A stretch of DNA of 64,000 nucleotides from an uncultured Desulfocapsaceae bacterium (GTDB taxonomy: Bacteria > Desulfobacterota > Desulfobulbia > Desulfobulbales > Desulfocapsaceae): assembly GCA_964565605.1 (NCBI GenBank), contig CAZMFP010000014.1, positions 9,700 to 73,699 of the forward strand, read 5' to 3'. How positions within the stretch are numbered: position 1 is the first letter of the stretch; the number at the start of each line of letters is the position of its first letter. The notes under the pieces are model-generated. The model worked only from the letters and a program-made list of their open reading frames with translations, was not told the DNA's origin and searched no databases. The translations under genes were made by a program, and so were the position numbers. Below are positions 3,301 to 30,656 of the stretch, piece after piece.

Positions 3301-3371
3301 GCGGCGTCCATATTCAGGGATTCACCATGGAGCAGATCAGCAGCCAGATCGAAGCGGCTCTCACTATCTGA
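306..3371 (+). CDS. hdrA: Large HdrA-like heterodisulfide reductase subunit A (two FAD/NAD-binding modules plus several 4Fe-4S motifs), a selenoprotein with Sec at TGA 486-488
   Basis: ORF-track pieces 306-488 and 540-3371 are in the same frame and are separated only by TGA 486-488 and an open stretch. Read-through gives ...[30 protein letters not shown]..., the conserved HdrA DCSxC(I/L)xxPK motif with Sec in place of Cys. Other motifs are GGGITG and GGGVAG dinucleotide folds and ferredoxin motifs [24 protein letters not shown] and [12 protein letters not shown]. An AGGAG RBS lies upstream of ATG 306. Confidence 0.85.
486..525 (+). promoter_or_regulatory. Sec-UGA plus SECIS-like hairpin of hdrA
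   Basis: TGA at 486-488 is followed by hairpin AGUGC-GGUCG-GCACU at 511-525. The GGUC-type apical loop is as in enterobacterial fdhF SECIS. Confidence 0.5.
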
Positions 3372-3407: not shown

Positions 3408-3824
3408 ATGAGTTTTGAACCAAAAATAATAACCTTCTGTTGCAACTGGTGCTCATATGCGGCAGCCGATCTTGCCGGCACTGCCAGGATGCAATATCCA
3501 GCCAACGTCAGGATCATCCGGGTCATGTGCTCGGGCATGGTCCATCCTGAGTTCATTGTCGATGCCTTCCGGCAGGGGGCTGATGGCGTCATGGTCATGG
3601 GCTGACACCTGGGAGAATGCCATTACCTGGACGGTAATCATAAAGCCCTGGCCAGATCAAATATGATCGACGAACTCCTGGAAGATTTTGGTTTTGATAA
3701 CGAGAGGTTTTCAATTTCATGGGTCTCTTCCGCCGAACCTGACAAGTTCGTCCAGGCGGTAACAAAAATGACCGAACATGTCAGGAAACTGGGCCCGACA
3801 GACAACCAGGCCCAAGCTGCTTAA
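3408..3824 (+). CDS. mvhD: MvhD-like [2Fe-2S] hydrogenase/Hdr connector subunit, a selenoprotein with Sec at TGA 3603-3605
   Basis: The ORF track stops at 3605. Read-through in the same frame gives ...[58 protein letters not shown]... up to TAA 3822-3824. This matches the MvhD G-C-H-x-G-x-C-H-Y motif with Sec for the first Cys. Confidence 0.85.
3603..3638 (+). promoter_or_regulatory. Sec-UGA plus SECIS-like hairpin of mvhD
   Basis: TGA at 3603-3605 is followed by hairpin AUUACC-UGGAC-GGUAAU at 3622-3638. Confidence 0.5.
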
Positions 3825-4783: not shown

Positions 4784-6232
4784 ATGGGTAAGGTGTTAAA
4801 CATACAACCGGTAACCCGAATTGAGGGACACGCTCGTATCTCCATCCATCTTGACGATGACGGCAATGTAGACGAAGCTTATATGTCGCTGATGTCTCTG
4901 CGAGGATTTGAAAAATTTATCGAGGGCAGACCGGCCGAAGAAGTCCCTCGGATAGTAACCCGTATTTGCGGCATCTGTCCATGGATGCATCATACAGCCT
5001 CCAACAAGGCGGTTGATGGCTGTTTTGGCGTAACCCCCACTCCGACAGGTCACAGGCTCAGAGAACTTTTACAGGTAATGGCTCATATTAATGACAAGAT
5101 CCTCCACTTTTTCTTCCTGGCAGCACCTGACTTTGTCCTTGGGCCGGATGCCGATTATTCAGTTAGAAATGTTATTGGTGTAGTCAAAGCGGCTCCTGAA
5201 CTGGCGACCCAGGTTGTGAAAATGCGGCAGCTTGGCCAGATGATGCTGGACCGCTTTGCCGGCAAGGCCATCCATCCCATTGCCGCAGTGACCGGTGGTT
5301 TTTCCAAACCGATGCTGGAGTCCGAACGTGTTGAGCTTCTGAAAGACACAGAGACCTTACTTGACTTCAGTCGCTATGCTCTCGACTACGCAAAAGAAAA
5401 CGTCTTTAGTAAATATATCGACGTTATTGGAGAACTGGGTGTCATCAACACCGGTTTTTTAGGCACTGTTGACCGCGAGGATGGTTCATTCAGGATTTAT
5501 GACGGCATACAGCGGCTGATGAAACCGGATGGCAGCTATATCGATTTTGAGGGAGAGGAGTATCTTAACTACATTGGAGAACACGTAGAACCATGGAGTT
5601 ATGGCAAGATGCCGTATGCCAAATCATGGAACGAAGGATTTTCCCTTGACCTGGATTCCCCTAAAGGCATTTACAGGGCAAATACCCTAGCCCGTATCAA
5701 TGTTTGTGACCAGATGGCCACACCAAAGGCACAGGAAGCTCTTGAAGAATTTCGCGCGGCTTTCGGCCGTCCGGCACAGGCCACCCTGCTCTATCATTAT
5801 GCCCGCTTAATCGAGTTGGTTTATGCCTGCGAACGGACCATCGAACTGCTTAACTGGGACGGTATAACCGACACCAATGTCCGGGCCAAGGTTGAACCCA
5901 AGGCCGGTCGGGGTGTTGGAGTCGTCGAAGCCCCGAGGGGTACTCTTATTCACGATTACACAACAGATGAAAACGGCTGTATCAAGGATGCCAACCTGAT
6001 CGTGGGGACAACCCACAATATTGGGCCGATGAACATGAGTGTCAAGCAGGCGGCCAACCTGTTGATCAAAGACGGAAAATATGACGAGGCAATTTTAAAC
6101 AAGGTGGAGATGGCAGTCCGGGCCTACGACCCCTGAATGTCCTGCGCCACTCACCGCCTGGATGGCGGCATCCCCCTTGCTCTTGACATTGTTGATGCAA
6201 AAGGGAAACTGATTGAAACGTTATCAAACTGA
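4784..6232 (+). CDS. mvhA: [NiFeSe]-hydrogenase large subunit (MvhA type), Sec at TGA 6134-6136
   Basis: The N-terminal RIEGHARI and RICGICPWMHH motifs are present. The ORF track ends at ...VRAYDP followed by TGA. Read-through gives DP-U-MSCATHRLDGGIPLALDIVDAKGKLIETLSN and then TGA 6230-6232. DPUxxCxxH is the C-terminal Ni-binding motif with Sec as the Ni ligand. Confidence 0.9.
6134..6168 (+). promoter_or_regulatory. Sec-UGA plus SECIS-like hairpin of mvhA
   Basis: TGA at 6134-6136 is followed by hairpin CCGCC-UGGAU-GGCGG at 6154-6168. Confidence 0.45.
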
Positions 6233-6884: not shown

Positions 6885-7571
6885 TTATTTTTTCATTTTC
6901 ATCTTTTTCATCATCATCTTCCGTTTTTCCGCTCTTCTCTTTCGAATCATCATGGTATCCTTGGCCATTCCCAGATAAGATTCGGTTAAGGCTTCATCAA
7001 ATGTTGCTGTTTTTCCGCCATTGGCAGCCTGGGCAGCCTTTGCTTTTTCCGGTGACGCAAATGCCATTTTTGATTTTGCCGACATTGTGCCCGGAAGCTT
7101 TGAACCGACCAGGTAGGTCATTTTATCAACATTCGCCAGGGGCTTCATCTTGCCATCTGCACCAAAATCGGCAGCATAGATACCCTTTATTCCGCGATCA
7201 AGATTAAGAGAAAGACTAATTGCCAGACAGTGGATAGAGCACGTTCCATCTACCAGGTCATCACTGTAATGAACAAGGTGACGGCTATGGCTCCACATTT
7301 TTCTGACCATCCCGCAATAAGGACATCTCTTATATTTTGTCATGTCATCTTTCAAAGGATTAGCATCGGGAGCGGTTTTGGGAATAAACTGCAATGGTGT
7401 ACCGTCGCCATCACATCTCTCACCCTGCTTCATCCAACCCTTTCCAGGTAGCATGGCGCCAACACTTTTTGCAGCTGCATTTCTGCTATACAAGCCGACA
7501 AATCCGGCAGCAGAGGTCAAAGCCATAAATTTGAGAGCCATACGGCGAGTAATTGTATTATTTTCTTTCAT
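6885..7571 (-). CDS. NosL-family-like periplasmic metal-binding protein with a Tat-type signal and a Met/Lys-rich tail
   Basis: The N-terminus ITRRMALKFMALTSAAGF is a twin-arginine-like signal. The CPYCGM motif is typical of the NosL family. The C-terminal tail is RKRRAEKRKMMMKKMKMKK. Confidence 0.55.
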   Translation of the reverse strand: MKENNTITRRMALKFMALTSAAGFVGLYSRNAAAKSVGAMLPGKGWMKQGERCDGDGTPLQFIPKTAPDANPLKDDMTKYKRCPYCGMVRKMWSHSRHLVHYSDDLVDGTCSIHCLAISLSLNLDRGIKGIYAADFGADGKMKPLANVDKMTYLVGSKLPGTMSAKSKMAFASPEKAKAAQAANGGKTATFDEALTESYLGMAKDTMMIRKRRAEKRKMMMKKMKMKK

Positions 7572-9666: not shown

Positions 9667-9729
9667 CTGATTATTAAGAAAGCTTTGATAACACTGGGTA
9701 TTGCCAAGGGAAGAATCATTGGTGATGAG
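9667..9729. repeat. Short form of the intergenic palindromic (MITE-like) element
   Basis: ctgattattaagaaagct..taacac.gggtattgccaa joined to ..gaagaatcattggtgatgag. This matches the two termini of the full elements at 50510-50727 and 53560-53775, with the centre missing. Confidence 0.45.
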
Positions 9730-16561: not shown

Positions 16562-17452
16562 ATGAAAAAAATGTTTCTTATTTTTCCACTCCAATTGATT
16601 TCTATTCTTCTATTTGCTGGTGCCGCCCTGGGTGCACCGATTGATATTGTAGTCTCCATTGCTCCACAGAAGTGGCTGGTCAGCCAAGTTGGAGGAACTA
16701 TGATCTCAGTCAACACTCTCATTGGCAAGGGTCAGGATCCACACTCTTTTCAACCCACACCGAGACAGATCGCCCATCTCTCAAAAGCCCGATTCTATTT
16801 TACCATTGATATGGCTTTTGAAAAAACCATATCAAACAGAATCAAGCACCTGAAAACAGGACCTCAAGTAGTTGATATTTCACAAAACATCCACAAGATC
16901 CAAATGGATCGACATACTCATCTTGAAGAAGATCACCACCATGCTGACCATAAAGCTCTTCAGCCCCTTGACCCGCATATCTGGCTTTCACCCGTCATCC
17001 TCAAACAGATAGCAACCACAATCTCTGATGTACTCATCGAAGAAGATCCGGACAACCGTGAACAGTATAAAAACAACCTGAAAAAACTCAGTAACAAGCT
17101 TGAGAATATCCATGCAGCAATAAAAAAGAAGCTTGCCCCTTTTACTGGTTCATCTTTTTATGTCTTTCATCCATCATTTGGTTATTTTGCCCAAACCTAT
17201 CACCTCCACCAGGAAGCAATTGAAGTGGAGGGGAAGTCACCACCCCCAAGGCAACTGCAACGACTTATTAAAAAAGCAAAAGATCAAGGAGCCAAAATCA
17301 TTTTCATCCAACCCCAATTTGACCCAAAAAGTGCAACAGCCATAGCCTCAGCCATTGATGGCCATGTTATTCCACTGGACCCACTTGCTGAAGATATTGA
17401 AAATAATCTCCTGTTGATGGCGGATAAAATCGCAGGAGCACTCAGCAAGTAG
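16562..17452 (+). CDS. znuA: Zinc/manganese ABC transporter substrate-binding protein (ZnuA/TroA cluster 9) with a His-rich loop
   Basis: A signal peptide is present, along with the DPHxW motif (LDPHIWLSP), the His-rich loop DRHTHLEEDHHHADH and FHPSFGYF. No znuBC genes are adjacent. Confidence 0.75.
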   Translation: MKKMFLIFPLQLISILLFAGAALGAPIDIVVSIAPQKWLVSQVGGTMISVNTLIGKGQDPHSFQPTPRQIAHLSKARFYFTIDMAFEKTISNRIKHLKTGPQVVDISQNIHKIQMDRHTHLEEDHHHADHKALQPLDPHIWLSPVILKQIATTISDVLIEEDPDNREQYKNNLKKLSNKLENIHAAIKKKLAPFTGSSFYVFHPSFGYFAQTYHLHQEAIEVEGKSPPPRQLQRLIKKAKDQGAKIIFIQPQFDPKSATAIASAIDGHVIPLDPLAEDIENNLLLMADKIAGALSK

Positions 17453-17480: not shown

Positions 17481-17810
17481 TCACATGATATCGCCATGGG
17501 GTTCCTGCAGGAGACGAACAGTTTGTAGAACAACACCATTTCTTTGAAGAACAGTTAAAAGCTGTTCGAGACCTGTCTGGTCATCATCAAATGTAATCAC
17601 GAGACGTTTTCGACCAAGATCCGGATAGACGTCAACAACCCCTTCCAACAGCTGAACAGCCTTTTCAATTTCAGGCAACAAGGTATCGCTTAATGCCGGA
17701 ATATGGAAAGAGTAGACATACTCACCGGCAATTACAGGTAATTTTGTACAATTTATTATGACGATGAGCAGGCAGATCAACAGGATATTTTTTCCGCCTC
17801 GTCCCATCAT
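17481..17810 (-). CDS. Hypothetical exported protein (HMA-like beta-alpha-beta fold guess, no CxxC)
   Basis: A 109-aa ORF with a signal-like N-terminus. I recognise no family. Confidence 0.35.
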   Translation of the reverse strand: MMGRGGKNILLICLLIVIINCTKLPVIAGEYVYSFHIPALSDTLLPEIEKAVQLLEGVVDVYPDLGRKRLVITFDDDQTGLEQLLTVLQRNGVVLQTVRLLQEPHGDIM

Positions 17811-17900: not shown

Positions 17901-18118
17901 TACTGTTTGTGGTTCGCATCAGAGCTACTGGCATGAAGTAATGTGCAATACCTACGAAATACTATTAATTTCAGACAGTATCACAATTTAATAACAGATT
18001 CATTCTCTTCTCTATTTCCCTTGACACACCCTTGGGTAATGTCCTAGAAGTAAGGCATAATAGCAGTCTAATTTTGTTTGAGGTCGAAGTAATCTGTTCA
18101 CATTCTACGGAGGCAAAG

Positions 18119-18532
18119 ATGACAAAAAAAGAGTTAAAGAAGTTTCTTGCCGGCCTAAGCGTCGCAAGCCTGCTCAGCGTTGGCGGAGTCGGTATGCACG
18201 GCGCCCAAGCCGGTCCCAGTGGATGAGGTGACAAACCCGGCACAGGTGGTGCCGACTCAAAAAAAGAAGCTTCAGGCAGTGGCTGAGGCGGTGGATCCGG
18301 TGCAGGTGGCACCGACCAACCGACCAGCGAAGAAGAGGCCAAGAAAAAAGATCCCGGAACAAGTGGCTGAGGTGGTGGATCCGGTGCAGGTAGCACCGAT
18401 CAACCAACCAGTGAAGAAGAGGCCAAGAAAAAAGATCCCGGAACAAGTGGCTGAGGCGGCGGATCCGGTGCAGGTAGCACCGATTCTAAAAAGTCTGAGG
18501 ACGACAAGTCCGGGAAAAGTGGCTGAAGCTGA
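18119..18532 (+). CDS. Poly-selenocysteine, tandem-core SbtA-like RiPP precursor (137 aa if all five in-frame UGA are read as Sec)
   Basis: ATG 18119 has a GGAGG RBS. The signal-like leader is MTKKELKKFLAGLSVASLLSVGGVGMHGAQA. Five in-frame TGAs follow at 18224, 18284, 18368, 18452 and 18524, all in an S-G-U-G(G) context. My translation is GPSG-U-GDKPGTGGADSKKEASGSG-U-GGGSGAGGTDQPTSEEEAKKKDPGTSG-U-GGGSGAGSTDQPTSEEEAKKKDPGTSG-U-GGGSGAGSTDSKKSEDDKSGKSG-U-S-stop (TGA 18530-18532). Each UGA has a SECIS-type hairpin 11 nt downstream. Six of 7 substitutions between repeat units are synonymous in this frame. The ORF track shows only 18032-18226. Confidence 0.75.
18224..18254 (+). promoter_or_regulatory. 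Sec-UGA 1 plus SECIS-like hairpin
   Basis: TGA 18224-18226 is followed by an 11-nt spacer and then CGGCAC-AGGUG-GUGCCG at 18238-18254. Confidence 0.65.
18284..18314 (+). promoter_or_regulatory. Sec-UGA 2 plus SECIS-like hairpin
   Basis: TGA 18284-18286 is followed by an 11-nt spacer and then CGGUGC-AGGUG-GCACCG at 18298-18314. Confidence 0.65.
18368..18398 (+). promoter_or_regulatory. Sec-UGA 3 plus SECIS-like hairpin
   Basis: TGA 18368-18370 is followed by an 11-nt spacer and then CGGUGC-AGGUA-GCACCG at 18382-18398. Confidence 0.65.
18452..18482 (+). promoter_or_regulatory. Sec-UGA 4 plus SECIS-like hairpin
   Basis: TGA 18452-18454 is followed by an 11-nt spacer and then CGGUGC-AGGUA-GCACCG at 18466-18482. 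Confidence 0.65.
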
Positions 18533-18554
18533 TTTTCCCGTGCAGTTTGCACGA
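18524..18554 (+). promoter_or_regulatory. Sec-UGA 5 plus SECIS-like hairpin (hairpin lies past the stop codon)
   Basis: TGA 18524-18526 is followed by an 11-nt spacer (which includes the terminal AGC TGA) and then CGUGC-AGUUU-GCACG at 18539-18553. The register is the same as for the other four. Confidence 0.5.
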
Positions 18555-18568
18555 TATTTGTAATTCAT

Positions 18569-18606
18569 AAAAGCCGATGGTTAAAAGACCATCGGCTTTT
18601 ATTTTT
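18569..18606 (+). terminator. Intrinsic terminator/attenuator between the precursor and the maturase gene
   Basis: aaagccgatgg-ttaaaaga-ccatcggcttt is followed by tattttt. Confidence 0.75.
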
Positions 18607-18623
18607 CCCTTTCAGCCGATCCT

Positions 18624-20213
18624 ATGAATCATTCTAAGAAAACATCGCAAGGCCACAATTTTCAAACAAGATTTCCATCCTCCTGGAGTCTTGTTCAGCA
18701 GGTTAATAACGACCTGGCAGACTTGGTGACAACCAAAGAAGAGTTTCACCAACTGTGTCGAGACAACCCTTCAGTCGTCGATACATTTCCTTTTCTTCCT
18801 GAGTTGTTTTCAGTTGAACAATCCATTCACAAGCTTCAATCAACAACACCTGGAATAGAGATACCGACTTCAGAAATCATCGTCAATCCTCAGCTTGAAC
18901 TCATCACTGTTCAATATTCCGGCCTGGCAAACCTGCTCAATGATAAGCCATGCGTCCCGACCAGGAAGTTGTCTCATATCTGCATTTTTCGAACTCCTGG
19001 TGAAAAGGATATACAGGTTGTTGAAGCTCACCCCCATGATCTTCTTGCTCTTAAAATTGTCTCAGAAAGTCTCGACTACAGGCAAGTTTCCAGGGAGGCC
19101 GGAACCACCCTTGGCCAGATCGATGATATTGTTTACAACGCCATTCAAAAAGGGATTTTGATCAGTCCCTCTTCACGAATTAGAAGACCAGAAGAATTTA
19201 AAGCGGGTTGTGTTACCGACAGAAGTTTTTTCTCATCCAGAGTCTTTACCCTGCAATGGCACATTACCCAGCAGTGTGACCTGCACTGCCGCCACTGTTA
19301 TGACAGGAGTAAGAGACAGGAAATGACTCTTGAGCAGGGAACACATGTACTCGATGAGTTGTATGACTTCTGCCTGAAACAGTTTGTCTACGGTCAGGTG
19401 ACTTTCACCGGCGGGAACCCGCTTCTCTACCCTGATTTTCTAGAATTATATCGCCAGGCTACAGACCGGGGCTTTCTCACAGCCATTCTCGGCAACCCTA
19501 CCTCACGTGCTCAACTTGAAGAAATCCTCCATATACAAAAACCGCAATACTACCAGGTCAGCCTGGAAGGGATGGAGAGTCATAATGATTATATCAGGGG
19601 AAAAAATCATTTTAACAGGGTGATTAAGTTCTTACAGCTGCTCAAAGAACTCGATATCTACTCAATGGTGATGCTGACCTTGACAAGAGATAATCAGGAT
19701 CAGGTCCTGGAGTTGGCCGAGTTCCTAAGGGATAAAGTCGATCGATTTAATTTTAACCGGCTCTCAATGGTCGGTGAAGGGGCGGCCCTTACCTCTGTTG
19801 ATGTTGATGGATATTCTAACTTTTTAAGAAACTACAAAAAAGCTGCTGAAAACAACCCTGCCATGGGTCTGAAAGACAATTTTTTCAACCTGCTCCAGTA
19901 TCAGGACAATGCAACCCAATTTTATGGCGGTTGTGCCGGTCACGGTTGCGGTGCTGCCTTCAATTTTGTTTCACTCCTACCCGATGGTCGAGTGGATGCC
20001 TGCCGCAAATTTGACTCCCCCATGGGCAACATCTTCAAGGAGGATTTCTTAAAAATTTATCACGGTAAACAGGGTGAGCTATACCGAAATGGACCATCGA
20101 ACTGTAACGATTGCGATATTCGTCCAGTTTGCCGAGGATGCATGGCTGTTTCTTTCGGTATGGGAAAAGATGTTTTCAAAGAGATAGACCCGTATTGTTT
20201 TATGAAGAAGTGA
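18624..20213 (+). CDS. Radical SAM/SPASM peptide maturase, SbtM-like (thio/selenooxazole-forming family candidate)
   Basis: A 529-aa ORF. An N-terminal domain of about 200 aa could be a peptide-recognition domain. The radical SAM motif is QQCDLHCRHCY. The C-terminal SPASM-like Cys cluster reads CAGHGCGAAFNFVSLLPDGRVDACRKF...CNDCDIRPVCRGCMAV. It lies immediately downstream of the Sec-rich precursor. Confidence 0.8.
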   Translation: MNHSKKTSQGHNFQTRFPSSWSLVQQVNNDLADLVTTKEEFHQLCRDNPSVVDTFPFLPELFSVEQSIHKLQSTTPGIEIPTSEIIVNPQLELITVQYSGLANLLNDKPCVPTRKLSHICIFRTPGEKDIQVVEAHPHDLLALKIVSESLDYRQVSREAGTTLGQIDDIVYNAIQKGILISPSSRIRRPEEFKAGCVTDRSFFSSRVFTLQWHITQQCDLHCRHCYDRSKRQEMTLEQGTHVLDELYDFCLKQFVYGQVTFTGGNPLLYPDFLELYRQATDRGFLTAILGNPTSRAQLEEILHIQKPQYYQVSLEGMESHNDYIRGKNHFNRVIKFLQLLKELDIYSMVMLTLTRDNQDQVLELAEFLRDKVDRFNFNRLSMVGEGAALTSVDVDGYSNFLRNYKKAAENNPAMGLKDNFFNLLQYQDNATQFYGGCAGHGCGAAFNFVSLLPDGRVDACRKFDSPMGNIFKEDFLKIYHGKQGELYRNGPSNCNDCDIRPVCRGCMAVSFGMGKDVFKEIDPYCFMKK

Positions 20214-20255: not shown

Positions 20256-20723
20256 TTATTGAGAAGAAGCCCGAACGGCTTTAACATGGCCCTTATACGC
20301 TGGTGTAAATTCACGGATGATGCAACAGCCACCACTGGCATCATCCCACGATCCAACGACAATCTCTCCGAGTTGGTTACGTACCCAGAATTTACCGCTT
20401 AGATTAAAAGCTGATTTTTTGCGGCTTTTCTCTCCAAAATCAAAAGTGAAATAGACATTATGAAATTCAGCAAGAGTTGGTAGCCGCCAACCGCTGTTCC
20501 CGGAAAGGTTAAGTTTGTTTATATATTTTTGGGCCTCATCCGCACTGTAAACAAGCCTGCTTTTATGCTGCTGCCAGACAAGGTTCTGGGCGGTATCAAG
20601 AAAAGAGGCGTCTCCTGTGACAATGAGTCTGGTTGTAGAGTTGGTGGAACAACCAGATGTTAGGGCAAAGGAGAATATGAAAAGAAGACAGTATGAAAAA
20701 CGCATTGAGAATAGAAATGCCAT
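20256..20723 (-). CDS. DUF1566 (Lcl C-terminal-like) lipoprotein
   Basis: The lipobox is FALTSGC. The GWRLPTLAEF motif is characteristic of DUF1566. Confidence 0.55.
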   Translation of the reverse strand: MAFLFSMRFSYCLLFIFSFALTSGCSTNSTTRLIVTGDASFLDTAQNLVWQQHKSRLVYSADEAQKYINKLNLSGNSGWRLPTLAEFHNVYFTFDFGEKSRKKSAFNLSGKFWVRNQLGEIVVGSWDDASGGCCIIREFTPAYKGHVKAVRASSQ

Positions 20724-22797: not shown

Positions 22798-23835
22798 ATG
22801 ACCAAAAAACAATCTCTTGCCGTTGTTCTACTCGGTGCTGGTAAAGGGACCAGAATGAAATCGAGCAAAGCAAAAGTGCTCCATGAACTTTTCCACGCCC
22901 CGATGATCTGCCACGTTCTCAAACGGATTGAATCTCTTTCTCCCGAACAGACTGTTGTCATTGTTGGCCATCAGCACCAGGAAGTCATGGCTGCTGTAGA
23001 TACGTTTGGTGTAGACTTTGCCTACCAGAAAGAACAGCTTGGCACCGGCCATGCCGTTTTATGCGCCGAAGATCATATTCAAAATGATATTACAACCGTT
23101 ATGATCCTCTGTGGTGATACTCCGCTTATCCGTACCGAATCCCTTGCCGAAATGATCCGGCAGCACAAGGAAAGCACGGCAACTGTTACTGTCATGACTA
23201 CCAGACTTGACAATCCTACTCATTATGGCCGCATTCTTTGTGATTCATCCGGGAAAGTGCAAGCCATAGTTGAAGAAAAAGATGCGACCACTGAGCAGAA
23301 GAAAATAGATGAAATCAACACCGGGATTTATTGTGTGAACAGAGAATTTCTCTTTAACACCCTTAAAAACATAGGAACCGACAATTCTCAGGGAGAAGTC
23401 TATCTAACCGACATTGTTTCCCTGGCTGTTGCAGGCTCATATACGGTTGAAAAATTTAATAATCTATTCGCAGCTGATGTCCTCGGTGTCAATTCACGGG
23501 TGGAAATGGCCCAGGCCCATGGTGAGCTGCAAATGCGACACAATACAAACCTGATGCTCGATGGTGTAACGATGATATCACCTGAAACCATCAGTGTTGA
23601 CCCCCAGGCTGCAGTCGGCCGAGATACAACGATCCTACCGAGTGTCCATATCCGCGGAGCAACCACGATAGGTGAAGGCTGTCTGCTGGACAACAACGTT
23701 GTTCTTGACAATTGCAACATAGGCAATAATGTTCAAATCGGTCCAAACAGTTACCTTAACGGGGCAACCATTTCGGATGACACTACCCTGGAGCCGTACA
23801 CAACCACCAGGCACAGGAAATCATTCTCCAATTAG
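22798..23835 (+). CDS. glmU: GlmU-like UDP-GlcNAc pyrophosphorylase with a truncated left-handed beta-helix (345 aa)
   Basis: The uridyltransferase motif LGAGKGTRMKS is present, followed by QKEQLGTGHAV and the start of the hexapeptide repeats. The ORF ends about 110 aa earlier than canonical GlmU (about 456 aa in E. coli, remembered). Confidence 0.65.
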   Translation: MTKKQSLAVVLLGAGKGTRMKSSKAKVLHELFHAPMICHVLKRIESLSPEQTVVIVGHQHQEVMAAVDTFGVDFAYQKEQLGTGHAVLCAEDHIQNDITTVMILCGDTPLIRTESLAEMIRQHKESTATVTVMTTRLDNPTHYGRILCDSSGKVQAIVEEKDATTEQKKIDEINTGIYCVNREFLFNTLKNIGTDNSQGEVYLTDIVSLAVAGSYTVEKFNNLFAADVLGVNSRVEMAQAHGELQMRHNTNLMLDGVTMISPETISVDPQAAVGRDTTILPSVHIRGATTIGEGCLLDNNVVLDNCNIGNNVQIGPNSYLNGATISDDTTLEPYTTTRHRKSFSN

Positions 23836-28329: not shown

Positions 28330-29466
28330 ATGGCCCAAGAGCAAATGATACCGGATCCAGTTGTACCTCCTCCGGAAGTGCCAAGTCGACCTAGAACTAT
28401 CGACATTTCACTTACAGGTCGATGTAATCTCAGATGCCAATACTGTTTTTACAATAATGAGATGATTGCCCTTGAAGACCTGTCTACTGAAGACTGGTTC
28501 TCCTTCTTCCAGGAGATTGGCTCACTTGCTGTACGCCATGTTACTCTTAGTGGTGGTGAAGTCTTTACTCGACCAGACTTTTTTGATTTAATTGACGGGG
28601 TAATCGAAAACAGAATGCGCTATTCGATTCTGACCAACGGTACCCTGATTACCGAAGAGACTCTCTTGGCTTTTGAAAAAGGCAAACGTCGACTTCGGCT
28701 CGACTCTATTCAAGTTTCCATAGATGGGTCCTGCGCAGACATCCATAACAAGAGCAGACCACCCAACAGTTTTGACAGAGCTATACAAAGCGTAAAACTA
28801 TTAAAACAAGCCAATTTTCCCGTTACGGTTCGAGTAACAATAAATCGACACAACATAAATGATCTCGATAATATTGCGGAATTACTCTTATCTCAGATAG
28901 GGTTATCCAGTTTCAGCACTAACGAAGCTGAACAGATGGGCACTGCCCGCTGCAATGGCCAAGACGTGGCCTTGACAGATGAAGAACGCATTTATGCCCG
29001 CTCTGCCCTCTCGAACCTAAACAAGCGGCATGATAATTGCATCTCTGCAGATGCGGGCCCACTTGCTTTTGAACGCCACTTAGAGGAAATAGAAAAGTCT
29101 ATGGCTGAAGGAAAAACAGCACTACCAGGACGAGGAACCTTAAGTTCATGTGGTGGTGTTTACAACAAAATGGCGGTTCTCCATGACGGAACTATGGTCC
29201 CATGCAACATGCTGCCGGCATTGACAATGGGTAAAATCGGTACAACACCTCTAAAGGAAGCATGGTTGCACCATCCATCAATTAATGTGGTTCGCCAACG
29301 TATGCTGATCCCCTTGCAATCGCTGGCCACCTGCAGCGACTGCAATTACACCGGTTTCTGCTCCGGCGGGTGCCCGGCCAATGCAATGGCAAAATTTAAC
29401 AGACTCAATGAAATTGACCCTACTTTCTGTTACCGACTTCAAAAGAGGAAAGGAGCCCATCAATGA
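28330..29466 (+). CDS. Radical SAM/SPASM peptide-modifying enzyme 1 (PqqE-like; ScmE/ScmF-type)
   Basis: The radical SAM motif is GRCNLRCQYCF. The SPASM region reads SSCGGVYNKMAVLHDGTMVPC...CSDCNYTGFCSGGCPANA. Confidence 0.85.
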   Translation: MAQEQMIPDPVVPPPEVPSRPRTIDISLTGRCNLRCQYCFYNNEMIALEDLSTEDWFSFFQEIGSLAVRHVTLSGGEVFTRPDFFDLIDGVIENRMRYSILTNGTLITEETLLAFEKGKRRLRLDSIQVSIDGSCADIHNKSRPPNSFDRAIQSVKLLKQANFPVTVRVTINRHNINDLDNIAELLLSQIGLSSFSTNEAEQMGTARCNGQDVALTDEERIYARSALSNLNKRHDNCISADAGPLAFERHLEEIEKSMAEGKTALPGRGTLSSCGGVYNKMAVLHDGTMVPCNMLPALTMGKIGTTPLKEAWLHHPSINVVRQRMLIPLQSLATCSDCNYTGFCSGGCPANAMAKFNRLNEIDPTFCYRLQKRKGAHQ

Positions 29467-30656
29467 ACGGTTGTAACTACCAGGAACCCGAGGGCAACAT
29501 TGATAAAAAGCTTGACTTGCCGGAAGGAGTTCCACCGCTCCGAGCGTTCTACCTCTACCTTTCCAACAGCTGTAACCTTGCCTGCCGTCACTGCTGGATT
29601 ACAACCTCTCTAGTCAGTGGCACACCGGACACGGAAGATGTAATTGACACAGAACTCTTAAGAGGTGCCATTAAAGAAGCCAAGCCAATGGGTTTGAGCA
29701 ATATCAAACTCACTGGCGGAGAACCTTTGCTTCACCCAAAATTTCAAGAAATTGTTGAGATGCTCACCAAAGAAGGTCTCAACCTGGATTTGGAGACCAA
29801 CGGAACTCTCATTACTGCTGAACTAGCTCATTTTCTGAAGAACAAGTCTGCTGTCAGCTTCATATCGATCTCCCTGGATGGCAGCAACCCTCAAGACCAT
29901 GACCGTTTCCGAGGCGTGAAAGGCGCTTTTCAATCAGCTCTTCATGGCCTCGACCACTTAGTCGCTGCCGGCTATGACAATATCCAGGTCATTATGTCTG
30001 TTCATCATGAAAACCAGAGGCAGATTGAAGATGTCGTCCGCCTGGCCGCTGACCATGGCGCCTCCTCTGTCAAGTTTAACCCCATAATTAAAAGCGGTCG
30101 AGGAATTGGCATGAGCCAACGAGGTGAAACCCTTGATATTCACCAGCGAATTGCCTTAAATCATTTTATATATGATGAACTTCAACCAAAGCTGACCAAA
30201 GAAGGCGTCGATATCGACTTATACATCTACAGCCCGCCAGCCCTGACACCTATTCAGGAACTCTTTACTGGTAAAAGGTGTGATTTTAACTGCGAAGTGT
30301 TAAGCATCCTTGGGATACTCGGAGGTGGGGAAATAGCCCTCTGCGGTATCGGTAGAAACATCCCCGAACTCGTTTATGGCAACCTGGAGAAGGATTCTAT
30401 TCGAAAGATCTGGTTATCCCATCCAACTATCTTACAATTACGAAAGGACCTGGACAATACTGCTGAATATCCAGGAATTTGCGGCAAGTGCTTAGCAGCG
30501 AAATTATGTCGAACCGGCTGTATTGCTCAAAATTTTCTTGAAAGCAAACAGATGATCTGGCCAAATTTTCTCTGCGAAAAAGCCGAAAAGCACAACCTCT
30601 TCCCTAAAACCAGAAAAAAACCAGCAGCACTTGCTACCAGCACGACTAGTGGCTGA
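29463..30656 (+). CDS. Radical SAM/SPASM peptide-modifying enzyme 2 (PqqE-like; ScmE/ScmF-type)
   Basis: The radical SAM motif is NSCNLACRHCW. The C-terminal auxiliary-cluster cysteines read CDFNCEV...ALCGIG...CGKCLAAKLCRTGC. An ATGA overlap links it to enzyme 1. Confidence 0.85.
   Translation: MNGCNYQEPEGNIDKKLDLPEGVPPLRAFYLYLSNSCNLACRHCWITTSLVSGTPDTEDVIDTELLRGAIKEAKPMGLSNIKLTGGEPLLHPKFQEIVEMLTKEGLNLDLETNGTLITAELAHFLKNKSAVSFISISLDGSNPQDHDRFRGVKGAFQSALHGLDHLVAAGYDNIQVIMSVHHENQRQIEDVVRLAADHGASSVKFNPIIKSGRGIGMSQRGETLDIHQRIALNHFIYDELQPKLTKEGVDIDLYIYSPPALTPIQELFTGKRCDFNCEVLSILGILGGGEIALCGIGRNIPELVYGNLEKDSIRKIWLSHPTILQLRKDLDNTAEYPGICGKCLAAKLCRTGCIAQNFLESKQMIWPNFLCEKAEKHNLFPKTRKKPAALATSTTSG

Follow-up and report, generated by a model that had tools for sequence, protein, structure and literature searches.

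The 64,000-nt stretch analysed here (the window: positions 9,700 to 73,699 of the forward strand of contig CAZMFP010000014.1, assembly GCA_964565605.1, from an uncultured Desulfocapsaceae bacterium) carries, at 18119–20213, a short gene whose reading frame is broken five times by TGA, sbtA, and directly after it a gene for a radical S-adenosylmethionine (SAM)/SPASM maturase, sbtM. The pair is very probably a two-gene sbtA–sbtM cassette of the thio(seleno)oxazole family of peptides that are made by the ribosome and modified after translation (RiPPs), in a selenocysteine-using bacterium of the Desulfobulbales type. Below, Sec and the letter U denote selenocysteine, except in 'Sec-type signal peptide', where the term refers to secretion. 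The parts of the cassette, in window coordinates, are the following.

18109..18113, + strand: GGAGG ribosome-binding site (sequence reading).
18119..18532, + strand: sbtA, 137 codons, stop TGA 18530–18532 (read-through translation, TIGR04081 match, layout in relatives).
18119..18211, + strand: predicted leader and Sec-type signal peptide, 31 amino acids, with a KK-rich n-region, a hydrophobic core and a cleavage site between AQA and G (inspection).
18567..18612, + strand: terminator-like hairpin between sbtA and sbtM, 16-bp stem followed by a T-run (terminator scan).
18624..20213, + strand: sbtM, radical SAM/SPASM maturase of 529 amino acids with a putative ~200-residue N-terminal domain like the RiPP recognition element (RRE) (TIGR04082, Pfam, AlphaFold2 model).

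The GGAGG motif, read from the sequence, lies 5 nt ahead of the ATG at 18119. Translation of 18119–18565 gives an N-terminal stretch of 31 residues, MTKKELKKFLAGLSVASLLSVGGVGMHGAQA, followed by Gly/Ser-rich modules that are broken by in-frame TGA codons at 18224, 18284, 18368, 18452 and 18524. All five stand directly 3′ of AGT-GG(A/C), that is, Ser-Gly, and successive TGA codons are 60, 84, 84 and 72 nt apart. In the read-through translation they correspond to Sec residues 36, 56, 84, 112 and 136 of 137, four in the context SGUG and one in SGUS. A sixth in-frame TGA, at 18530, follows one Ser codon past the TGA at 18524 and is likely the true stop of the gene, because the precursors of relatives (L063, L065 and L073) end in SGUS followed by TAA or TAG. 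The start codon, the ribosome-binding site, the signal-like leader, the five TGA codons after Ser-Gly, the unit lengths and the SG-U-S end had all been described in a first-pass annotation made from the sequence alone, and each is present where that annotation placed it; translation likewise bears out its repeated Sec-containing modules.

The same annotation had proposed the SbtA/SbtM family, and this assignment held when the curated hidden Markov models (HMMs) were run. TIGR04082 (SbtM) matched residues 17–526 of the 529-residue protein at 648.4 bits (cutoff 350). The runner-up family, the ACGX radical SAM proteins, reached 165 bits, under its own cutoff, and the Pfam Radical_SAM and SPASM models both matched, in agreement with the radical SAM/SPASM gene that had been noted beside the peptide at 18624–20213. 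In an alignment of 20 homologues the CxxxCxxC cysteines (C218, C222 and C225) and eight cysteines of the SPASM region (C437, C442, C460, C494, C497, C503, C506 and C525) are invariant. The gene starts 92 nt downstream of the end of sbtA, and its product is about 50–67% identical to its nearest database relatives. The peptide matched TIGR04081 (SbtA) at 34.4 bits (cutoff 30.5, E = 1.3e-8) over residues 1–25 only, the leader being the sole part of the precursor that this HMM covers. When the read-through precursor, written with C in place of U, served as a short and low-complexity query against a 5.8-billion-protein collection, there was no match at E ≤ 1e-3.

An AlphaFold2 model of SbtM has a mean predicted local distance difference test score of 73.5, with residues 50–190 mostly above 84. 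Its N-terminal module consists of three strands followed by three helices. The best matches in the PDB, in which no SbtM structure was found, are the RRE-containing RiPP maturases SuiB and CteB, which align over 439–497 columns, whereas enzymes that lack the element, such as PqqE, align over only about 345. The model thus suggests that the N terminus of SbtM is an RRE-like leader-binding domain. On the precursor side, the family comparison shows that the leader is conserved far beyond ordinary signal peptides, which would fit a dual role as signal peptide and SbtM docking site.

Whether the TGA codons can be read as Sec depends first on the organism. Three further genes of the window have an in-frame TGA at the canonical Sec positions of their families: HdrA (486–488, TNDCSM-U-IIAPKL), MvhD (3603–3605, VMG-U-HLGECHY) and the [NiFeSe]-type MvhA (6134–6136, YDP-U-MSCATH). 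Because of these positions, the sequence indicates that the organism decodes Sec. A hairpin follows the UGA in each of the three genes, with the loops GGUCG (hdrA), UGGAC (mvhD) and UGGAU (mvhA), and an NGGNN loop pattern is common to these and to the AGGUG/AGGUA hairpins of sbtA described below. TGA also serves as an ordinary stop, as at the end of hdrA (3369–3371), so that both uses of the codon proposed in the first-pass annotation are borne out. An alternative genetic code, with UGA read as Trp or Gly, was ruled out because TGA terminates ordinary genes such as hdrA.

Next, the RNA downstream of the five sbtA codons was examined for selenocysteine insertion sequence (SECIS) elements by folding, by a pattern scan and with a covariance model, R1, that was trained on the first-UGA sites of 47 other genomes with the window excluded. 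The sites, all of them putative Sec codons, are as follows.

18224..18254, + strand: Sec codon 1 (18224–18226) and hairpin CGGCAC-AGGUG-GUGCCG (18238–18254); fold; R1 44.6 bits, E 6.6e-10.
18284..18314, + strand: Sec codon 2 (18284–18286) and hairpin CGGUGC-AGGUG-GCACCG (18298–18314); fold z −2.4; R1 39.3 bits, E 1.6e-8.
18368..18398, + strand: Sec codon 3 (18368–18370) and hairpin CGGUGC-AGGUA-GCACCG (18382–18398); fold z −3.7; R1 36.1 bits, E 1.1e-7.
18452..18482, + strand: Sec codon 4 (18452–18454) and hairpin CGGUGC-AGGUA-GCACCG (18466–18482); fold z −2.3; R1 32.7 bits, E 8.8e-7.
18524..18553, + strand: Sec codon 5 (18524–18526), Ser, stop (18530–18532) and 3′ untranslated region (3′UTR) hairpin CGUGCA-GUU-UGCACG (18539–18553); fold; pattern scan.

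A 6-bp stem follows every one of the five UGAs, starting at +14 after the four internal codons and at +15 after the last. The loops are AGGUG or AGGUA at the internal sites and GUU (alternatively AGUUU) at the last, and they begin 20–21 nt past the U of the UGA. Criteria of the bSECISearch type require that a stem–loop follow the UGA on its 3′ side at a short, fixed spacing and carry G in its apical loop, and the sbtA hairpins have both the spacing and the loop G. Four hairpins lie within the coding sequence, where they encode GAG(G/S)T, and the fifth occupies the same register in the 3′UTR. Because the hairpins are embedded in coding sequence, they account for the GAG(G/S)T peptide repeats (SAGST or SAVSA in relatives); part of what looks like a conserved peptide motif is the translated form of an RNA signal.

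These hairpins are a property of the family. Of 209 motif-defined SG-TGA codons in relatives, 201 (96%) have a hairpin with 5 bp or more that begins at +11 to +24; this holds for 12% of shuffled sequences and for 25% of the other TGA triplets of the same loci, so the pattern greatly exceeds chance. Among 55 relatives, the 3′UTR hairpin has compensatory changes at six of its seven pairs, with 92.7% of cells paired against 73.4% in shuffles (0/500) and 14–52% in slid controls, and a covariation score of 0.534 against 0.186 in shuffles (0/500). For the coding-embedded hairpin (69 sequences), five of six pairs have compensatory changes. Last, the covariance search of the TGA region that the first-pass annotation had proposed recovered, in the whole 64-kb window, exactly the four internal UGA sites (E 6.6e-10 to 8.8e-7) and nothing else below E 0.5 over the 128 kb of searched strand. 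Beyond that threshold, R1 also gave a weak partial match to the hdrA SECIS hairpin (510–531; 8.2 bits, E 2.3), which hints that the hdrA and sbtA hairpins have SelB-recognition features in common. Because a covarying hairpin follows each of them and other selenoproteins are encoded in the window, the sbtA TGA codons are best read as Sec.

One alternative, that the TGAs are plain stops, would leave only a 35-residue peptide, or would make an overlapping open reading frame (ORF) in another frame (18180–18563, 127 amino acids) the real gene and the repeats non-coding. Gene callers do end sbtA at 18224, the 127-residue ORF is uninterrupted, and there are antisense ORFs too. Against this stand the covarying hairpin after each UGA, one of them in the 3′UTR; the differences between repeat units, most of which leave the SbtA protein unchanged; and the use of Sec by the organism. 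In addition, the read-through frame, its SG-U-G motifs and a C-terminal SGU(S/G) are kept in 141 homologous loci, 99% of which have stops closing the other sense frames. The first-pass annotation had named frame conservation in homologues as a check on its reading, and the frame is indeed conserved. The absence of TAA and TAG from the SbtA frame in relatives follows by construction from how the sequences were segmented and was not used as evidence. We therefore regard plain termination as very remote. The ORFs that overlap sbtA are 18180–18563 (+), 17971–18396 (−) and 18272–18568 (−), and gene callers that treat TGA as a stop likely annotate one of them; the alternative-frame ORF and the antisense ORFs were rejected as genes, as they are not conserved.

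To place the locus in its family, we scanned with an SbtM alignment and obtained 584 relatives in species-representative genomes and 509 in metagenomes, of which the best 80 loci of each were analysed; SbtA genes were detected with a leader HMM and Sec codons were counted by motif. Wherever the flank was long enough, an SbtA gene was found directly upstream of sbtM (72 of the 80 loci from genomes, 70 of the 80 from metagenomes). The 141 SbtA genes that adjoin SbtM homologues represent 122 distinct precursors. One of these has no Sec codon, 3 have one, 38 have two, 59 have three, 19 have four and 2 have five, the five-Sec precursors being the one in the window and that of a single other locus, L052. 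Several Sec residues per SbtA are thus the family norm, with three as the mode, and five is the highest count among the surveyed precursors, a maximum that the window ties. The 342 Sec codons of the distinct precursors lie in the contexts SGUG (169), SGUS (94) and SSU(G/S) (35), with minor variants for the rest, and the spacers between units vary freely in sequence and length.

Cysteine is rare at these positions. The first-pass annotation had proposed a tblastn comparison for Sec/Cys exchange in the same column; the 342 Sec stand against fewer than 10 Cys in the same context. In fifteen relatives the C terminus is IEGC, with a terminal Cys in place of the terminal Sec, and a subfamily with (K)AIEGC directly before the stop includes L005, L007, L012, L015, L016, L019, L020, L027, L031, L033 and L069, among others. 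The lone precursor without Sec, from metagenome locus L133, is an all-Cys form, GSGCGGGSGCGG. In about 21 of the 122 distinct precursors a lipobox-like motif (LPGC, LDGC, LTGC or ATGC) replaces the AxA site (L034, L058, L063, L065, L074, L077, L050 and L066 among them), and other relatives carry an AHA cleavage site. These motifs suggest that the selenooxazole peptides are lipid-anchored in some species.

The counts differ from what is on record. SbtA has been described as having 'at least two SeCys' and a GGUG motif (PMC9204691), the family has been listed as 'TIGR04081, SGUG, 2 Sec', and a 2026 review puts prokaryotic selenoproteins at no more than 2–3 Sec (both PMC13188914), a ceiling that the five-Sec precursor of the window exceeds. 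They also correct two points of the first-pass annotation. Its premise that SbtA carries one Cys or Sec was wrong, as two to four Sec are usual in the 141 genes and the literature already gives at least two (PMC9204691). Its claim of an undescribed multi-Sec architecture fails as well, since multi-Sec repeats are normal in this family. What can be said is that the sbtA–sbtM family as a whole is under-described.

How the fifth Sec arose can be read from the repeat structure of the gene.

18278..18484, + strand: 84-nt tandem repeat, 2.5 copies, 94% matches (Tandem Repeats Finder, unit alignment).

Every 84-nt unit combines an acidic/basic spacer with a TGA and a SECIS hairpin. Five positions distinguish unit 2 from unit 3, and at four of these the change is synonymous when read in the SbtA frame; the 5′ junctions of the two units are not the same either. 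The nearest relatives (L001 and L002, SbtM 67% identical) share this layout but with four Sec, one unit fewer. On this sequence evidence the fifth Sec appears to have been gained by a recent 84-nt tandem duplication (units 2 and 3); the unit holds UGA, hairpin and spacer, and duplication would therefore add a functional Sec site in one step.

The alternative at this point is that assembly over-expanded the 84-nt repeat, which would make the count of five artefactual, and that the real gene has four Sec as in L001 and L002. Repeat-related breakage does occur here: Logan short-read contigs from four runs (L081–L084), with an identical sbtM, all start inside the repeat, at about window position 18427, 197 nt ahead of sbtM, and because four independent contigs start there, short-read (de Bruijn) assembly evidently breaks at the repeat. 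The copies, however, differ at five positions and at their 5′ junctions, unlike a collapsed or expanded identical repeat, and L052 has five Sec independently. An artefact is in our judgement improbable. As a separate matter, sbtA genes in metagenome assemblies may be systematically truncated or mis-counted at such repeats.

We then turned to the genes around the cassette. All-versus-all clustering of 80 loci gave no conserved partner genes and returned only housekeeping synteny (RsmE-like, Dtd-like and M16-like proteins) and spurious antisense ORFs. The neighbours in the window (a ZnuA-like binding protein, an HMA-like protein, an Lcl_C protein and an MsbA-like ABC exporter) are common to between 1 and 8 of the 80 loci. 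No protease or peptidase-domain transporter was found in the cassette, and the MsbA-like exporter has no peptidase domain.

These results bear on the 'tandem-core' idea of the first-pass annotation, that the gene encodes a multi-core RiPP of new architecture whose five modules are cut apart after modification into five small selenooxazole peptides. The modular repeats have similar spacers, and these are rich in Lys and Glu and possibly accessible to proteases. Such cleavage nevertheless finds no support: the cassette has neither a protease nor a peptidase-domain transporter, no neighbour is conserved in 80 loci, the spacers are variable and share no cleavage motif between units, the last 'core' would be just G-U-S, and the multi-unit layout is not new but the family norm. 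We consider five separate peptides a poor explanation, with little chance of being right. Because no conserved protease, exporter or immunity gene accompanies the cassette, a single exported chain is favoured.

Several other features of the surroundings were recorded. Three metal-related genes near the cassette are shared with the closest relatives only; they encode a substrate-binding protein resembling ZnuA/AztC, with a loop rich in His (16562–17452, +), a small protein weakly similar to MerP/CopZ (HMA) (17481–17810, −) and a NosL-like lipoprotein (6885–7571, −). An Lcl_C (DUF1566-type) protein of 155 amino acids with a lipoprotein-like N terminus (20256–20723, −) is convergent with sbtM and directly after it, and is present in only 2 of 80 related loci. 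Farther away, two adjacent radical SAM genes (28330–29466, with SPASM, and 29463–30656, both +) are unrelated to sbt and may be of the Ahb/NirJ-like heme/siroheme type. A GlmU-like ORF (22798–23835, +, 345 amino acids) matches positions 1–336 of GlmU models of about 455 residues; it appears to be without the C-terminal portion of its acetyltransferase domain, through truncation, frameshift or as a short form.

The closest known counterpart of the cassette is the SbtA/SbtM system of Geobacter lovleyi, reportedly the subject of work by Haft & Basu in 2011 and Lewis et al. in 2021. In both, a short, Gly-rich precursor that has its Sec between glycines (Gly-Sec-Gly) is encoded immediately upstream of the radical SAM/SPASM maturase, the UGA has a SECIS hairpin immediately downstream, and the hosts are Deltaproteobacteria-type anaerobes. 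Both window genes also score above the curated cutoffs of this family. The member in the window differs in having five Sec against the two, or at least two, of the accessible literature, to which the present analysis adds an own covarying hairpin for each UGA, a modal count of three and a range of 0–5. As for the chemistry, two sources state that the G. lovleyi SbtM, the only member for which the reaction is known, converts Gly-Cys or Gly-SeCys into a thio(seleno)oxazole with a change of −4 Da (PMC9204691; PMC11002830).

Three other systems invite comparison. Bufferins are RiPPs with a Sec-type signal peptide whose 5-thiooxazoles chelate periplasmic copper (PMC11626156). Like them, SbtA has such a signal peptide and no classical leader with a dedicated exporter, several Cys or Sec to be converted to 5-thio(seleno)oxazoles, and a product predicted to be a small periplasmic protein and no short peptide. 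The differences are that MNIO (DUF692) and DUF2063 proteins make the bufferin heterocycle, whereas the SbtA system uses a radical SAM/SPASM enzyme, of an unrelated class, and that bufferins are folded small proteins using sulfur, whereas SbtA would be a disordered Gly/Ser-rich chain using selenium. No match to MNIO (DUF692) or DUF2063 was found among the flanking genes scanned. Bufferins may be the closest functional analogy, though this is not membership. The eukaryotic SELENOP is likewise a secreted polypeptide with many Sec from serial UGA codons, but it relies on two distal 3′UTR SECIS elements for about ten UGAs, whereas each sbtA UGA has an adjacent hairpin of bacterial type; there is no homology, and the Sec of SbtA is presumably converted to heterocycles. 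Multi-core RiPP precursors (cyanobactins, some lanthipeptides and microviridins) resemble SbtA in their repeated modules with one modification site each, but around the SbtA units no recognition or cleavage sequences are conserved, no protease accompanies them, and the export of SbtA by a cleavable Sec-type signal peptide or lipobox makes a single multi-site product more likely.

These observations allow us to propose how the cassette would work. Translation of sbtA would start at ATG 18119. At each of the five UGAs, SelB and Sec-tRNA(Sec) would recode the codon as Sec, both being recruited by the small hairpin dedicated to it (6-bp stem, loop AGGUR or GUU, start 14–15 nt past the UGA). Owing to the strong terminator that follows sbtA, more precursor than SbtM would be made. 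Most likely, cytoplasmic SbtM would dock on the conserved leader through its RRE-like N-terminal domain and, by extension from the G. lovleyi enzyme, form a 5-selenooxazole at every Gly-Sec, with a shift of −4 Da at each. Because SbtM is an Fe–S enzyme, modification would have to come before export. The leader would double as a Sec-type signal peptide, so that the modified Gly/Ser-rich chain of 106 residues is exported and cut after AQA31. The result would be a single chain, periplasmic or secreted, that bears as many as five selenooxazoles, and not five peptides. Over time, the number of units would evolve through tandem duplication of a self-contained module of UGA, SECIS and spacer. The analysis shows that the locus belongs to the family, how it is built, that its hairpins are conserved and covary, how many Sec the family members carry and that the organism uses Sec; that Sec is in fact inserted at every one of the five sites and that each is modified, as well as export and function, we infer.

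Several points weigh against this interpretation. Serial UGA recoding is usually inefficient in bacteria, and truncated sbtA products may dominate; the 84-nt copy number could be an assembly error. The SbtA HMM cutoff was exceeded by a margin of only 4 bits, with the match confined to the leader, and the RRE assignment is a fold similarity at the level of a model. Rfam gave no match in the whole window at gathering thresholds, and neither an Rfam family nor any curated SECIS family fits the hairpins; at E ≤ 10 around the locus it returned only weak small-RNA matches that reflect the terminator hairpin (18567..18612). No tRNA was found in the 64 kb, and no selA, selB, selC or selD among the subset of the window's ORFs that was scanned. 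The three canonical selenoproteins of the window lend indirect support to a host that has these genes. Finally, the neighbouring genes vary across the family, so the context gives no functional clue.

As for the role of the product, our best guess, by analogy with bufferins and as speculation, is that the chain acts in the periplasm on soft metals or in redox reactions, in a multivalent manner. The same cassette might instead serve another purpose, as an antimicrobial ('selenobacteriocin') or as a SELENOP-like polypeptide for selenium storage or transport. Databases and a review label the family 'selenobiotic' or 'selenobacteriocin', and a secreted multi-Sec chain resembles SELENOP. Yet no conserved immunity gene, dedicated exporter or peptidase stands beside the cassette, the lipobox of about one-sixth of relatives implies a cell-anchored product, and the cassette has spread widely and vertically in Desulfobulbales and Desulfobacterales (584 genome and 509 metagenome matches); a dedicated maturase, moreover, speaks against mere selenium storage. 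None of these points is decisive, and we regard such a purpose as unlikely without dismissing it. A broader proposal, which we hold only tentatively and rate slightly above that alternative, is that SbtA peptides, with the five-Sec member at the top, are the most Sec-dense prokaryotic polypeptides and act as exported, multivalent poly-selenooxazole chelators or redox buffers, a selenium counterpart of bufferins, with a valency tuned by tandem duplication of the self-contained module. If this is true, the locus would offer a natural system in which to study how bacteria insert Sec serially and efficiently.

Together, these results place the locus in a barely studied system, of which it is a clean and extreme example and not a new one. 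The survey corrects the accessible literature on the family, in which three Sec are the mode within a range of 0–5, Cys almost never takes the place of Sec, leaders are usually of the signal-peptide or lipobox type, and conserved partners are absent; what it suggests is a polypeptide that is exported and carries several selenooxazoles. Should all five UGAs be decoded, a bacterium would be inserting five Sec within 300 nt through five local hairpins, which bears on the engineering of multi-Sec proteins.

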